IMG/VR virus record: IMGVR_UViG_2571042445_000002
DNA from: a virus
Lineage: Duplodnaviria > Heunggongvirae > Uroviricota > Caudoviricetes
Length of the DNA: 64,000 nucleotides
Direction: 5' to 3' (one strand)
Positions 43,631 to 58,089 of this stretch are shown here, one piece after another (within the stretch, counting starts at the first letter, position 1; the number at the start of each line of letters is the position of its first letter). The position numbers were made by a program, and so were the translations under genes. The notes below the pieces were generated by a model. The model was not told where the DNA came from and did no database searches. It was given only the letters and a program-made list of their open reading frames with translations.

Positions 43631-44011
43631 TCAAATATTGGAACCATATAGTTCACGTAGTTTTTCCGCTACTGAAGATACGGGGATTTCACCAGTTGCA
43701 GCCCCCACCGCAAGTTCCACCAGCACGGGAGAATCATATACCTGTATACCGTTACGGCGTAGAAATAGCAGCGCACTGTTTAGCGCGGTACGCTTATTGG
43801 CATCATTGAATATATGCCCTCTCGCTGTAGCCACCAGGTAGGTGGCGGAGACTTCGAAAAGGTCGGTGATCTCTTCGTAGGCAACTCTGGCCTGAACTCT
43901 CCCGATAATGGCCTCTGCCCTACCCGGATCTGACATTCCCGGCAGGCCGCCGTAGCGGTTTATATTCGCATCATGAAGCGCAATAAGTTCTTCCGGTGAT
44001 ATATGCCTCAT
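43631..44011 (-). CDS. doc: Doc toxin (Fic-family)
   Basis: 126 aa, near-identical to P1 Doc as I recall it ([17 protein letters not shown]...[19 protein letters not shown]). Confidence 0.9.
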
Positions 44012-44232
44012 TATCGGTTAACCAGTTCCTTGTTGGTGGAGTCCAGGGTGTCAAACAGGGATGCAAATTCAGCATCCAGCGCCGCTTTTTTGTAGGCTTC
44101 GAAAGTAGCCTTGCTGACAATTACTGCTGGCTCACGGCCTCTGCGGGTGATTTCAACCTCTTCCCCAGCTTCAACATTGTTGAGCACTTCAGAAAGGTTG
44201 CCGCGCGCGGTACGGAAGTTAATGGATTGCAT
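44011..44232 (-). CDS. phd: Phd antitoxin
   Basis: 73 aa from [41 protein letters not shown]; overlaps doc by 1 nt. Confidence 0.9.
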
Positions 44233-44408
44233 AAACACCTCGTGTACTCGTTATGTGTACACAATTATAAACCTCACAGGCATAAAGCACCAGCACTTTG
44301 CGGCTTAACAAACCTCTAGGCAGGTCATTCGTTGCCTAATGTCCGAACTGCTAAAGCATCCAAGTTGCTGTAGAATCACCGCCAATTACTTAAACCTGAA
44401 ATAAGTGG

Positions 44409-53230: not shown

Positions 53231-53263
53231 TGTTAGAAAATTAAAATCAATATTCTAATATCA
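53231..53263. promoter_or_regulatory. operator-like inverted pair
   Basis: TGTTAGAAAATTAAAA and TATTCTAATATCA upstream of the minus-strand DUF968 gene. Confidence 0.5.
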
Positions 53264-53292: not shown

Positions 53293-54009
53293 TTACGACT
53301 GCCCTCCCTTCACCTGCTTTAGCGTCAGATTTCCGCAAAAAACCGCACCAGTGTCTATGTAGTGCTGGTTCCAGAAAGATTTCGGGCTGCTTACTGGCGT
53401 ATGCCCGAAAATAAAGCTATCTGCACCAGTGATCATTCCACCAACACCATCAACCGCGTCATAAAATCGCTCACGCCGCCAGGTAACATTGAGATCGCTA
53501 ACAGGTTTACCAAACTGGTATTCGTTATCAGGATAGTCGGCATGGGCTATAACGATAGTTTCATGCCCGGTGTTCAACTCAATGATATAGGGCAAACGTC
53601 TTACCAGCTCCACCAGCGCCCTGGCTAATATTTCCCGATCAGCGTCCAGCATGAAGAACCATTGACCACCATTCATTAGCCAGTTATTCACGTTGCCTGC
53701 GGGACTTAACGCATCGATCATTAATCGCTCGTGGTTTCCCATAACCGACCGAAACCAGGGCATCTGCAATAGCTCCAGGCATTCAACATTTTCGGTGCCG
53801 CGATCGATAAGGTCGCCAACCGATATCAGTAAATCCTGTGTCGGGTCAAAGTCCACACGATGAAGTTCAGACATCAATCTGGTGTAGCAACCATGCAGAT
53901 CACCAACAACCCATATGTTTCTGTAGCCTGAACCATCAATACGGGTATATAAATTCACTTCATGCAGCGCCTGGGTCATGCGGCAACCTTCTCCCGCAGC
54001 CAGATACAA
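53293..54009 (-). CDS. Ser/Thr protein phosphatase (PPP-family metallophosphatase)
   Basis: 238 aa; motifs [20 protein letters not shown]. Confidence 0.7.
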
Positions 54010-54287
54010 ACCGGGCCATCTTCAGTGTCATGAATAGAGCCAACAAACCATCCTTCGCCCTCTGGTCGCTCTGGTTCCCAGGCGGCAATATCGGGACCAT
54101 CTGCGTCCAGATTAAAATGATCTTCATCCATACTGCGAATAGTCCACTGAAGATTATTTTCCTTCATCCAGGCGTCAAATTCCTCAGTGGATATATATTC
54201 ACGACCTGCGCAAAACTTTTCATACTCCGGATGTGTCCAGCAGCCATATTCATCACGTTCTACCGGCATTTCTTTAATGATGCTCAC
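53976..54287 (-). CDS. hypothetical protein
   Basis: 103-aa acidic ORF. Confidence 0.3.
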
Positions 54288-54508
54288 TCTTCATCCTCCA
54301 AGTCGGCAACGGCCTCCATCACATCAGAACCGCGAATAACCTCAAAAGCACGGCAGGCCATTTCAAACACCTGTTGTTCTTGCGGATGCGGTGACTCCCA
54401 ATACTTAAAACCAGGTCGATGCTCGTAACCCAACATGGAATAAAAATCGCCAGCAAGTTCAATCGCGGCATCAACAAGTTCGCGATTTGTCATCGTCTGT
54501 TCTGTCAT
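54284..54508 (-). CDS. hypothetical protein
   Basis: 74-aa acidic ORF, coupled. Confidence 0.3.
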   Translation of the reverse strand: MTEQTMTNRELVDAAIELAGDFYSMLGYEHRPGFKYWESPHPQEQQVFEMACRAFEVIRGSDVMEAVADLEDEE

Positions 54509-54780
54509 TTTGTTTTCTCCTGTCTGAACATCACTATCATCAGGTCGCCTTTTGTCGCTATCCTGGCTGTTGTACCTGGTTCAATGCGGCTAAGCTCAAA
54601 TGCGTCATAGAACGCTTCTAATGCCTTCTGGCGTAGTTCCTGTTTGCGCCGTTTTTTCCACTGTTTCAGGAAAATGGAACCCAGCCAACGCCATGTACGG
54701 GACATGATGTAAAGCCAACCGAGAAGTGCCAGACCGGTATTTAGGAGCGTATCGATCGTTATTGTCGTGTCGATATTCAC
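54505..54780 (-). CDS. small membrane protein
   Basis: 91 aa, N-terminal TM helix then basic region. Confidence 0.3.
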   Translation of the reverse strand: MNIDTTITIDTLLNTGLALLGWLYIMSRTWRWLGSIFLKQWKKRRKQELRQKALEAFYDAFELSRIEPGTTARIATKGDLMIVMFRQEKTK

Positions 54781-55460
54781 TGGCTGCCTCCTTTGCGAAG
54801 CTGTTCAGCAATACTTACGCATATCTCTGCGCCTCTAATCAGCCCCGGAACGTTCTTGTTTGGCCCAACTTCACCATCGACAAAATCAATCATCGCGTTA
54901 CGAGCCATATCCACGCCCTGCGCACGTACTTCAGCCAGGAAAGCATCGGTGGCTGGCGTTTCCCGTGAACGGTAAGACCAAACAATGTCGTCTGTTTCAC
55001 TGGGTTCTTCATGAGAGCAATTTGGGCAGACAGCAGTACAACCAGCATGATCTTCTATGAGCATCTTCAGCCACGAGTTCTCCTCCGCCAGCGTCACGCG
55101 ACTGGCCTCCAGTTCTGCTACGCGCTGTTTTGCAGCATCCAGTTCAATCGACAATTTTTCCAACTGCTCTTTATGCTTTTTATATTCCTGATATGCGTGC
55201 CAAGACTGACCTTTGCGCACACTATCCGTGATATCAGTAATCTGTTCTGGTGTTAGCGTGGTCAGTGGCTGTGCTGGGAAAATCAGCACTTTCCCGGCAT
55301 CCCAATCAAAACCCACCTGAATTGACTGAACCTCAACTGATGGTGTTGAACCGATGCGACCAGGCGAATGAACAACGATCGTTACATCCATATCGCGACG
55401 ATGGCTGTGGTTGTTGGACAAAATACGATTCACCAACTCCGAGAATTTGGAAAATTTCAT
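54777..55460 (-). CDS. Ea22-like coiled-coil protein
   Basis: start at internal Met (MKFSKFSEL) overlapping upstream stop (ATGA); C-terminal half aligns with the paralogue at 56270-56944. Confidence 0.4.
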
Positions 55461-55813
55461 GCTGATTCCCTTTGCTCTTCCTGGATAATGTTGTTGCAAT
55501 CTTTCACGCACTCGTTGCAGATGAAAACGTTGTCCCCGGCAATTAACTTTTTAACGGTGTGCTGGGATTTGTTGCAGAAGCTGCAATAAAGCGTTGGACT
55601 GGCTGATACGGATGGTGCGCCAGATGTCAGCCGCGCGATGTCGTTCTTGCGACGCAATATCACACGGCTGCACTCGACCAGCATCTCCGGGGATATATCC
55701 TCCTCCGTGGCGAGCGCCTCCAGACGTTCGAGCAAGCGAAATACTTTTTCCTGGGTGATTGCAGAATGCGATGTGGTCATCTCACTCTCCTTTGAGGCGA
55801 ATGCCTGTTGCAA
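55457..55813 (-). CDS. small protein with C-terminal ClpX-type zinc-binding domain
   Basis: 118 aa; [39 protein letters not shown] closely matches the ClpX N-terminal C4 zinc-binding domain as I recall it. Confidence 0.55.
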
Positions 55814-56273
55814 TGCTGTTTATGATGCTGTCAGTGCATGGGGTAGAAAGCTGGGCATCTCCAGCAATTTTCATGACCTCAACATCTGCATATCGAATAC
55901 CGAGGTGTATCAGACCGGCTATGCCTGACTTAAGCCGAGCATTTTCCATAAATAGAACCTTTGCCCGCTGTTTTTCTGCTTCAAGCTCAACACGCAGTTT
56001 CCCTACCGTAAGCGCAATATCCTCGTTCTCCTGGTCGCGGCGTTTTATGTATTGCTGGTTTCTTTCCCGTTCATCCAGTAGTGCCAAAGCAACCTTTGGA
56101 TTAAAGGCAGCAATAAATTCAGCGTTGTTTTTCAGAACGTGTTGCGCAATGGCCTGACTACTTAGTCGGACCTCATAACCACGTGTGCCACGGTGTGGTT
56201 TATATGAGTCCCAGTCTCCCCACGTTGCTTTTTCTGCCGCTTCACGCAGTGCCTGATAGTCAATCTTGCTCAC
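55782..56273 (-). CDS. Ead/Ea22-like prophage early protein (paralogue family)
   Basis: 163 aa; 5' about 200 nt near-identical to 50700-50907. Confidence 0.4.
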
Positions 56274-56944
56274 TGGTTGCCTCCTTTGCGAAGCTGGGCA
56301 GCGAACCTATCAGCTGCATCCGCGCAAGCAGAAGCAACGGAATCAAAAAATGGATCATCTCCTGTATCGCGCATCGTCAAAGCGAATGCCTCCACCCCTT
56401 GTGCCTGTATTTCTACAAGGGATGCCTTAGATGTAGTGCTTTTCGCCTCGCCTAATTCGTTATGAGCGATGTTCGCTATACATGCGATGTCTATATCTGG
56501 ATGATTAATTGGGCAATGGCTAAGAATTGCCTCAAGTGCTGCTTTTTTGCTTTGGCATTCCGCCACCAGCGCCCCGCAATTGCTTTCCAGCTCTGCAATA
56601 CACTTTTTAGCGGCCTCCAGCTCAACACGCAGATTCTCAAGCGTTAGAGCCTTCTCCACGTTCTCGTCCAGCAGTTCAATCACATCAGGATCGCTACCAT
56701 CAACTACTGATATGCGCGAATTTTTGTAATGCTCGTCAGCATAAGTTCGTCCAGTTTTGAAGCATCCGTCATCCTCCATGCCGGAACAGGCATAAACAAC
56801 ATGTGATCCAGATATGCGCTGCATTGACATTTCCTCGCCACAAACAGGGCATTTAGGCGCTGGTTTCGGTGAATAACGTTCACGTAACGGATAGTAAAGC
56901 TCGATCTCCGCCAGTTGCTCTGGCGTTAAACCTTCAGACTTCAT
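56270..56944 (-). CDS. Ea22-like coiled-coil protein
   Basis: 224 aa; C-terminus ends with the same AEQLRKGG(S/N)Q motif as the 54777 gene. Confidence 0.4.
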   Translation of the reverse strand: MKSEGLTPEQLAEIELYYPLRERYSPKPAPKCPVCGEEMSMQRISGSHVVYACSGMEDDGCFKTGRTYADEHYKNSRISVVDGSDPDVIELLDENVEKALTLENLRVELEAAKKCIAELESNCGALVAECQSKKAALEAILSHCPINHPDIDIACIANIAHNELGEAKSTTSKASLVEIQAQGVEAFALTMRDTGDDPFFDSVASACADAADRFAAQLRKGGNQ

Positions 56945-57251
56945 GTACTCTCCTTTCGAAATAAACGTACTGATTAATCATTCCCAGGGGCATTTCGAGT
57001 TTTTCTGCGATCTCACGGCGGGGAACACCACACTGATGAAGCTGCCGCGCCAGTTCTATATCGCTCTGCCGGTATTTGGCTGACTGGTGAAAGTCTCCTT
57101 TCAGAATCATGCTGATCCGCAGTTGCCGCGCTTTAGTCCTGACAGCACCACCGGTACGCCCGATCAGTCTCCCAATACCCTCGACTGTCATAGTCCCGGC
57201 GCACTGGCGGAGTATCATGATTTCTGCCCTTCCCCATCCCCGCCAGCTCAC
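56934..57251 (-). CDS. HTH-containing small regulatory protein (putative)
   Basis: 105 aa with HTH-like segment GVPRREIAEKLEMP. Confidence 0.3.
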   Translation of the reverse strand: MSWRGWGRAEIMILRQCAGTMTVEGIGRLIGRTGGAVRTKARQLRISMILKGDFHQSAKYRQSDIELARQLHQCGVPRREIAEKLEMPLGMINQYVYFERRVHEV

Positions 57252-57886
57252 GCAGAACTCCTTCTAACCAAAAGAACGCCATCTTCAGAAACAATGTTGC
57301 AGGACTTCAGGTAATTCATTGCCACTTTCGGTAATGGATTCTTTGGATCGGCGTTTGCCAGGGATTTCGATAACCTCAAGATAAATTTGATCATTACCTT
57401 CTGACGGAGCTTGTGCTCATGAGATGCAGACAGGTAATAGGAAATGGTATGGGCTAAACGCTCACGAAGCTGTTCTGTGCCGTGATATACAGCAGCGATA
57501 TCACGCAGTGCATTGACCAGTTCCCGGTAAATATGCGGAGCAACCTGGCATTCAATGTTGGTTGGTGACTCATAAATTACATTCAGCCCCAGCTTTTGAG
57601 CCAGCTCGTGCTCTGCACGAGCGCCAACTGATTCCTCCCACCCCTTGAGCAAATAGACCGCATTAGCCGAACGCAACATTGCAAGGCAAATATCCATGTA
57701 TTCACTCTGGCAGAGGCCAGCAGGTAACAGCGCCGGATTCAGAACAATATGCCCTACCTCCATCAGCTCTTTTGCTTTCGAAAAAAACGCTGTGCGGTTG
57801 TAGTCGGGATAACCAGTCATCGGACCCGCGATGTAAATTTTCATAATGCGTTTTGACATCAAAGTTTCCCCAGGAACGTTACGCAA
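57248..57886 (-). CDS. DUF4406-like (nucleoside deoxyribosyltransferase-fold) protein
   Basis: 212 aa; N-terminal YIAGPMTG...VLNP...LKGWEESVGARAEHE matches the DUF4406 pattern. Confidence 0.4.
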   Translation of the reverse strand: MRNVPGETLMSKRIMKIYIAGPMTGYPDYNRTAFFSKAKELMEVGHIVLNPALLPAGLCQSEYMDICLAMLRSANAVYLLKGWEESVGARAEHELAQKLGLNVIYESPTNIECQVAPHIYRELVNALRDIAAVYHGTEQLRERLAHTISYYLSASHEHKLRQKVMIKFILRLSKSLANADPKNPLPKVAMNYLKSCNIVSEDGVLLVRRSSA

Positions 57887-58053
57887 AAGTTGATGAGAGC
57901 AAAGAGTTCAATGCCCAGCTCAAACAACGCCAGGACAGTGAAAAACAGGGCATATAGCAACCCAATTTCTGTACCGGATTGCTGGTGGATTGCACTTATT
58001 GCGACAAGCATCATGACCTCCTGATATAGCGTCTGAAAAAAAAGTATCTTCAT
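57859..58053 (-). CDS. small membrane protein
   Basis: 64 aa, two hydrophobic helices. Confidence 0.25.
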   Translation of the reverse strand: MKILFFQTLYQEVMMLVAISAIHQQSGTEIGLLYALFFTVLALFELGIELFALINFCVTFLGKL

Positions 58054-58055
58054 TT

Positions 58056-58089
58056 TGTGTTAGAAAATCAATTTTGATTTTCTAACACA
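58056..58089. promoter_or_regulatory. perfect palindromic operator
   Basis: TGTGTTAGAAAATCAATTTTGATTTTCTAACACA between divergent genes. Confidence 0.6.

Follow-up and report, generated by a model that had tools for sequence, protein, structure and literature searches.

A gene on the minus strand of a D6-like phage-plasmid was found to encode a 107-amino-acid protein in which the C4 zinc-binding domain (ZBD) of the host unfoldase ClpX stands at the C-terminus, behind a different, conserved helical module and without the AAA+ module. The gene lies in a 64,000-nucleotide stretch of the IMG/VR virus record IMGVR_UViG_2571042445_000002 (Caudoviricetes), hereafter the window, which is D6-like and falls into the P1 group of phage-plasmids. 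The protein is tentatively read as a dimeric receptor-domain mimic that would sequester one or more ZBD-dependent clients, a reading that we regard as possible rather than probable. The gene and its parts are located in the window as follows.

55457..55780, minus strand: coding sequence (CDS) of the ZBD gene, stop codon included; product 107 amino acids, 12.0 kDa, pI 5.7
55475..55591, minus strand: ClpX-type C4 ZBD, residues 64-102, corresponding to residues 12-50 of Escherichia coli ClpX
55592..55621, minus strand: flexible Gly/Ala/Pro/Ser linker, residues 54-63
55622..55762, minus strand: N-terminal helical module, residues 7-53, with one helix at 10-25 and another, kinked near residue 44, at 31-52
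55781..55813, minus strand: TTG-initiated extension, within the 3′ end of the upstream Ead/Ea22 gene
55787..55792, minus strand: Shine-Dalgarno sequence AAGGAG of the ZBD gene, 6-7 nt before the ATG at 55780

The longest open reading frame (ORF) at the locus, 55457..55813 on the minus strand, spans 118 amino acids from a TTG codon and was the interval adopted in the original prediction. A real gene is present there, but its start is most likely not this TTG, which would create a 32-nt overlap with the upstream Ea22-like gene. The true start is almost certainly the ATG at 55780, yielding 107 amino acids, because this codon lies 1 nt past the TGA of the upstream gene, is preceded by the AAGGAG sequence, and is the start of the RefSeq CDS (324 nt; WP_021551796.1, ‘ClpX C4-type zinc finger protein’; protein identical), which is annotated on an E. 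coli plasmid of 94 kb whose sequence in this region is 100% identical. The resulting N-terminus, MTTSHSA, is that of most homologues, and the 55781..55813 extension is probably not translated with the ZBD protein. Since the AAGGAG sequence is embedded in the final codons (..K G E stop) of the upstream gene, and an ATGA joins the stop codon of the ZBD gene to the start codon of the gene that follows, the ZBD gene is translationally coupled to its neighbours.

The C-terminal domain matched Pfam PF06689 (zf-C4_ClpX) with an E-value of 9.8e-18 and 64.2 bits against a cut-off of 27 bits, covering profile positions 2-39 of 39 (38/39). In a search of PDB sequences, the E. coli ClpX ZBD chains 1ovx and 2ds5 were matched at E-values of 1e-15 to 4e-15, and the best non-ClpX match had an E-value above 0.1. 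By counting from the alignment, 28 of the 39 residues (72%) were identical to E. coli ClpX 12-50. The zinc ligands C66, C69, C88 and C91 (CxxC...CxxC) align with ClpX C14, C17, C36 and C39, and all four are invariant in 18 homologues. The similarity is thus, as had been predicted, ClpX-specific and not that of a generic zinc ribbon; the match is real and very close, although its earlier description as ‘almost residue for residue’ was a slight overstatement. In an AlphaFold model of the protein, built with the 18 homologues (mean predicted local distance difference test score, pLDDT, 80), the predicted ZBD and the crystal structures 2ds6/2ds8 differ by 0.6 A across 38 superposed columns, of which 71% are identical, 2DS8 being a complex with the XB peptide. 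The predicted fold is the treble clef of the solved ZBD.

The residues named for the ClpX binding pocket are F16 and I46 (PMC7804408, section 13). Their equivalents in the phage protein are F68, invariant in the 18 family members, and I98, which is I, V or L in most of them. Also retained in the family are LIA and V(F/Y)I of the beta-hairpin, and the core positions L12, I28, G30, I35, V40 and C43 (ClpX numbering) are invariant. Relative to the ZBD of E. coli ClpX (PDB 1OVX, 2DS5-2DS8), the allele of the window is changed at P31, S32, D41, L42, D45 and R48.

No AAA+ module follows the domain: the reading frame ends at residue 107, none is encoded downstream, and the next gene specifies an unrelated Ea22-like protein. 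The NCBIfam ClpX equivalogs TIGR00382 (43.6 bits, cut-off 370.75) and PRK05342 (47.5 bits, cut-off 359) stayed far under their thresholds, matching over model positions ~5-50 only. The protein is hence a full PF06689 member by domain and not a ClpX as a protein. The absence of the ATPase had been correctly noted from the letters alone; the description of the protein as a free-standing ZBD holds in that sense, but the domain is not bare, as the conserved module at residues 7-53 had been missed.

This N-terminal module was modelled as two to three helices with pLDDT values of 85-95, and is joined to the ZBD by the linker (pLDDT ~55, below 50 at residues 56-59). The 18-member alignment contains 35 invariant columns, 22 of them in residues 7-53, which is 22 of the 23 that precede the ZBD. 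The ratio of nonsynonymous to synonymous substitution rates (dN/dS, Nei-Gojobori) was 0.2-0.3 for the module in most pairs, and both halves of the protein are under purifying selection, stronger on the N-terminal module. Because of this selection and the occurrence of the exact protein on 975 public contigs, the gene is considered a working one. When a profile of the module was compared with 1.84 billion representative proteins, 11 matches were obtained; all intact ones carried the ZBD, and the remainder were fragments or spurious repeats. The module is therefore an orphan domain known only in fusion with the ZBD. Sequence methods (Pfam, NCBIfam, PHROG, hhalign) returned no significant assignment for it. 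It may be ribbon-helix-helix (RHH)-like, which is taken as a lead and not as a finding.

Three subtypes of the family were distinguished: the D6-type of the window, the P88-type, and a Salmonella type (P0040). Orthologues in Escherichia phage D6 (orf93, 83% identity to the window protein), PhiR41_1 (76%) and phage P88 (gp19, 49%, representing the P88-type) share the two-module architecture. In the P88-type ZBD, 31 of 39 residues are identical to ClpX (counted from the alignment), and P31, Y34 and L42 are retained. The family ranges only over temperate elements of Escherichia and Salmonella, the carriers being D6-like phage-plasmids, 108-kb plasmid phages (PhiR41_1, CMS-2020a), and prophages of the P2 family that resemble P88, to which the chromosomal copies belong. 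By blastn, a member was present in 195 of 5426 complete E. coli genomes (~3.6%), in 100 chromosomal and 105 plasmid places. The same search with the ZBD DNA returned family members only and never the chromosomal clpX; recent capture from the host clpX was rejected on this lack of DNA similarity.

The family has been catalogued already, under the RefSeq name, as PHROG 6797 (‘unknown function’), and as D6 orf93 and P88 gp19, and the older name ‘carboxylate--amine ligase’ is a mis-annotation. No functional study of the family turned up when the literature was searched for ZBD proteins that are free-standing or phage-borne. The idea that free ZBDs are common in phage databases was mostly rejected, as matches in gut ‘Bacteriophage sp.’ records belonged to full clpP-clpX operons, gp258 of phage G proved to be a full ClpX, and most other phage matches, jumbo phages included, were full-length clpX genes. 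The sole other free ZBD found was in Caulobacter phage Cr30, where an unannotated ORF of ~72-79 amino acids (L004 2986-3225; NC_025422.1 ~81470-81709) encodes a ClpX-type ZBD. The record annotates just a 41-amino-acid fragment of it, gp170. The Cr30 ORF resembles the window protein in lacking the ATPase but has no N-terminal module; it is an independent case, from a phage that is lytic.

The decoy idea is plausible. The C-terminal 40 residues would fold as the ClpX treble-clef zinc domain and would present the beta-hairpin and the hydrophobic side pocket on which ClpX docks its substrates, lambdaO among them, as well as SspB, RssB and trigger factor; clients so bound would be kept away from the unfoldase, because the ZBD protein has no ATPase. 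The N-terminal module with its flexible linker could provide additional dimerisation or avidity, or a second, more specific contact that chooses the captured client. The analysis established the homology and predicted fold of the protein, its domain architecture and conserved residues, the selection on it, its distribution, and how the operon is built; that it would dimerise, bind ligands and compete with ClpX, like the timing of its expression and any client, we infer. The ClpX pocket overlaps the lambdaO site, and the same region is bound by trigger factor, SspB and RssB (PMC7804408, section 13). The isolated ClpX ZBD dimerises (PMC7226468, Fig 2a, cross-linking), and when supplied in trans at 5-20 uM it inhibits RssB-mediated sigmaS degradation by 0.6 uM ClpXP (PMC7226468, section 3.1, Fig 1d). 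Across the three unrelated temperate-element backbones, no neighbour other than mosaic Ead/Ea22 genes is conserved beside the ZBD gene, which argues for a conserved host target and suggests a host partner rather than a phage partner.

Several observations weigh against such a mimic. The window allele has Asp at L42, which is adjacent to the pocket and one helical turn from I46, and also Asp at P31, conserved in ClpX; Y34 is Phe in the window protein and Cys in some relatives. Because of these replacements, ligand specificity may differ from that of ClpX. The lack of blastn similarity to E. coli clpX indicates that the domain is an old, diverged copy. Inhibition by the free ZBD in vitro took a ~10- to 30-fold excess over ClpX (PMC7226468), and a plain decoy would therefore have to be abundant. 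The dN/dS of the ZBD was 0.2-1.2 (Nei-Gojobori, small counts), higher than that of the N-terminal module, and a pure decoy leaves unexplained why this module is the most conserved part of the protein. A two-headed protein, in which the ZBD would capture ClpX adaptors or substrates and the N-terminal module, possibly RHH-like, would tether what the ZBD holds, either to DNA or to another partner, is a more doubtful variant of the mimic.

The ZBD gene is part of a tightly packed operon with overlapping stop and start codons, close to which a putative operator motif recurs.

53293..58014, minus strand: operon holding the ZBD gene
58057..58088: 32-bp perfect palindrome formed by two inverted copies of TGTTAGAAAATCAA, between the divergent ref gene and the operon
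53231..53244, plus strand: motif copy at the distal operon end, between the phosphatase and DUF968 genes
17112, 18321, 31176, 31190, 34839, 40678, 53233, 58060, 58074 and 58705: motif copies in the window
3204, 3857 and 7949: motif copies in comparison sequence L014

In order of transcription, the operon encodes a small hydrophobic ORF, DUF4406, a small DNA-binding-like protein, two Ead/Ea22 proteins, the ZBD protein, an Ea22-like protein (phrog_368), DUF4752, two small ORFs, and a metallophosphoesterase. The asymmetric motif TGTTAGAAAAT(T/C)AA, in its fuller form (a)tgTGTTAGAAAAT(T/C)AA, was counted 10 times in the window, mostly at intergenic places, where 0.36 occurrences would be expected. 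Over a 20-kb stretch, about half of the sequence could be aligned to that of Escherichia phage D6, at 89.5% identity, and D6 carries the motif at homologous positions, including the place of the palindrome and the distal operon site. Phage P1 likewise has dispersed asymmetric C1 operators; the P1 C1 operator consensus was absent from the window. The motif set probably represents operators of a C1-type repressor of the D6 lineage, with the palindrome at 58057..58088 as a probable operator pair controlling the operon. Hence the operon would probably be repressed in the plasmid state via the TGTTAGAAAATYAA sites and expressed on entry or induction. As repressor-operator-like sites flank the coupled operon, the ZBD protein is probably made on derepression or new entry.

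The possible RHH-like nature of the N-terminal module raises the alternative that the protein is a DNA-binding regulator, in which a dimeric N-terminal module would sit on DNA and the ZBD would serve as a second dimerisation or sensor domain. Tetramers might then form on tandem operators, or DNA might be released when the ZBD binds a ligand, as in ClpC2 or NikR-type RHH regulators. Weak matches to Pfam RHH_5 (E-value 0.05) and to PHROG ‘Arc-like repressor’ families (E-values 0.049 and 0.19) point in this direction, and hhalign, run against an RHH reference alignment entered by hand, placed helix A and a (D/G/N)-(I/V)-(S/N/A) turn in register with the G-x-S/T/N turn of RHH proteins. In the mycobacterial ClpC2, which autoregulates, the N-terminus binds DNA and is joined to a homologue of a Clp N-domain (PMC10030653, Discussion). 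However, the putative beta-strand, only 3-4 residues long in P88-type members, carries hardly any basic residues, the module has an acidic pI of 5.7, and none of the other ZBD-carrying elements shares the operator-like motif seen in the window. We consider this alternative unlikely.

The genomic setting suggests another explanation, in which the ZBD has no relation to ClpXP and is a compact zinc-stabilised dimerisation or protein-binding domain, a swappable C-terminal module of the mosaic Ead/Ea22 set that would act in lysogeny control or inter-phage competition. Both upstream neighbours match Ead/Ea22 PF13935, and a gene of that family was adjacent or one gene off in every context but P88 itself; the ZBD protein had no PF13935 match and is not an Ead/Ea22 protein by profile. 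In the rare mosaic variants P0022 and P0024, other N-termini are attached at the linker, so that the same linker and ZBD follow an Ea22-like coiled coil, with a ..LKSG junction that is also found in the Ea22-like protein adjoining the ZBD gene of the window. Ea22 proteins have been described as prolysogenic and as bearing a repertoire of C-terminal domains (PMC7093339, sections 13 and 16). Within P88-like prophages, the ZBD gene follows gpA, ParM and an StbB-like gene and precedes the portal gene, at the P2-like locus (gpA-gpQ) described as a hotspot of anti-phage systems (PMC9122126, section 10). On the other hand, the 72% identity to the host ZBD, surface pocket residues included, exceeds what the fold would be expected to require, and the mosaic variants are singletons from read-archive assemblies and possible chimeras. 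No PADLOC defence model was matched either: in PADLOC-DB 2.0 the ZBD protein and four neighbouring proteins were without a match at E ≤0.1. Weak LmuB/JetC-type matches (E-values 0.005-0.02) were obtained for the downstream Ea22-like protein. A function apart from ClpXP is judged improbable.

Somewhat less likely still is a protein attached to ClpX as an adaptor or poison, in which the phage ZBD would heterodimerise with the ClpX N-domain or dock on the ring, and the N-terminal module, held on the protease, would deliver a new substrate or block the N-domain movements that some substrates need. ClpX ZBDs are constitutive dimers (PMC7226468, Fig 2a; PMC7804408), the domain core positions listed above are invariant in the family, and a flexible linker with a separate conserved module suits the layout of an adaptor. 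A precedent is SPO1 Gp53, a phage-encoded adaptor-like protein on ClpCP (PMC6873191). Yet ZBD dimers are stable, and the phage ZBD would have to exchange into ClpX hexamers that had already formed. Beside the ZBD gene, no conserved candidate for a cargo gene was seen. The adaptor role that had been offered as an option in the original prediction gained no specific support, since an SspB-like XB tail (LRVVK-like) was found neither in the ZBD protein nor at the C-termini of the relevant window ORFs, where a regular-expression search gave 2 unrelated matches, and no ClpXP adaptor family of Pfam or NCBIfam was matched by the ZBD protein.

A decaying, functionless remnant of a captured clpX 5′ end, which the shortness of the gene and its former mis-naming might suggest, is effectively excluded by selection and distribution, given the intact ORF with a strong Shine-Dalgarno sequence and translational coupling, the dN/dS of the N-terminal module well below 1, the architecture kept in three diverged subtypes, the exact protein on 975 contigs, and the lack of DNA similarity to clpX.

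Within the operon, the embedding of a Shine-Dalgarno sequence in the upstream gene was also seen at two other junctions, so that an AAGGAG/AAAGGAGG stretch both serves an overlapping downstream gene as its Shine-Dalgarno sequence and codes for a conserved Ea22-type C-terminal motif, ..KGE or ..RKGG(N/S)Q. The overlaps and the remaining features of the operon region and its surroundings are:

55782-55793, 56270-56290 and 54777-54800, minus strand: overlaps of Shine-Dalgarno sequences with Ea22 C-termini
54777-55460 and 56270-56944, minus strand: Ea22-like genes flanking the ZBD gene, mosaic, with near-identical C-terminal tails
57859-58014, minus strand: first gene of the operon, encoding a 51-amino-acid, very hydrophobic peptide
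43631-44238, minus strand: P1-type phd/doc module (Phd 73 amino acids, Doc 126 amino acids), ~11 kb from the ZBD gene

The significance of the Ea22 ‘+GE’ motif has been called unknown (PMC7093339), and coding for a Shine-Dalgarno sequence offers a simple explanation for it. The downstream Ea22-like protein has an N-terminal domain (phrog_6026) shared with phage PhiR41_1 only, a further instance of module shuffling in the region. A conserved partner gene was sought and rejected, as the downstream proteins of five contexts were unrelated, except for the window versus PhiR41_1. The 51-amino-acid peptide, MMLVAISAIHQQSGTEIGLLYALFFTVLALFELGIELFALINFCVTFLGKL, is preceded by a strong AGGAGG Shine-Dalgarno sequence and is likely a small membrane protein.

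By carrying phd/doc the element has a stake in ClpXP, Phd being a ClpXP substrate (Lehnherr and Yarmolinsky 1995, ref B102 of PMC4803016). In P88-like carriers no phd/doc was seen near the ZBD gene, and any tie between the module and that gene would be conjectural. A type I restriction system adjoins the operon in the element. The homologous plasmid NZ_CP085065.1 (23000-70500, L011), colinear with the window, has type I hsdRMS genes adjoining the operon. It further contains a second Icd/Rha antirepressor-like pair, a 2278-amino-acid SNF2-related protein, a four-tRNA cluster, and an insertion of TnpB with HicA, all of which is typical phage-plasmid cargo.

A mimic of the ClpX N-domain would be of interest because ClpXP governs many decisions important to temperate phages and plasmids. 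The protease takes part in remodelling of the Mu transpososome, removal of UmuD′, and degradation of HsdR in restriction alleviation. It turns over sigmaS through RssB (PMC7226468), degrades lambdaO (PMC7804408), and is linked to the clearance of repressor fragments in S. aureus prophage induction (PMC10584840). If the mimic reading is true, a phage-borne copy of the domain with which ClpX docks its partners would interfere, simply and selectively, with adaptor-dependent reactions and leave the protease running. In its two-headed variant, the protein would enable the element to rewire ZBD-dependent proteolysis on entry or induction, with Phd, UmuD/HumD, replication initiators, sigmaS (through RssB) and, from rival phages, Mu-type transposases or repressor fragments as candidate clients. 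If true, this variant would be the first case of a viral protein shown to act on an AAA+ protease, by inhibition or redirection, through a copy of the domain that docks the substrates. The protein looks soluble, is small, and is common among complete E. coli genomes, and many of its carriers are clinical phage-plasmids. The hypothesis is cheap to test, as the needed assays exist. If the mimic reading is wrong, the family still constitutes a clearly defined orphan module within the Ea22 accessory regions, about which little is understood.

Among known systems, the ClpX ZBD itself shares with the phage domain the C4 treble clef, the 72% identity, the zinc ligands and the pocket residues F16/I46, whereas in the phage protein the domain is C-terminal, stands behind a different domain, and has no AAA+ module after it. 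T4 PinA and T7 Gp4.5 are phage modulators of Lon. A precedent for the mimic is mycobacterial ClpC2, a free-standing partial homologue of the ClpC1 N-terminal domain that competes with the unfoldase for its ligand and acts as a sponge (PMC10030653). ClpC2 is likewise a small protein with a lone Clp receptor domain at its C-terminus and an unrelated N-terminus (PMC10030653); it differs in that its domain has the ClpC/ClpA-type N-domain fold and not that of the ZBD, it is encoded by the host, its ligand is an antibiotic, and DNA binding by its N-terminal part has been demonstrated, which is merely hinted at in the phage ZBD protein. IraD, acting on RssB (PMC7226468), and SPO1 Gp53, acting on ClpCP (PMC6873191), are alike as small modulators of host proteolysis that occupy docking surfaces. 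None of IraD, SPO1 Gp53, T4 PinA and T7 Gp4.5, however, is known to copy the receptor domain of the protease. Receptor mimicry would thus be a different route to the same end as that of anti-adaptors and phage modulators, and the ZBD protein is a candidate modulator of an AAA+ protease that would act by copying the protease's own docking domain.

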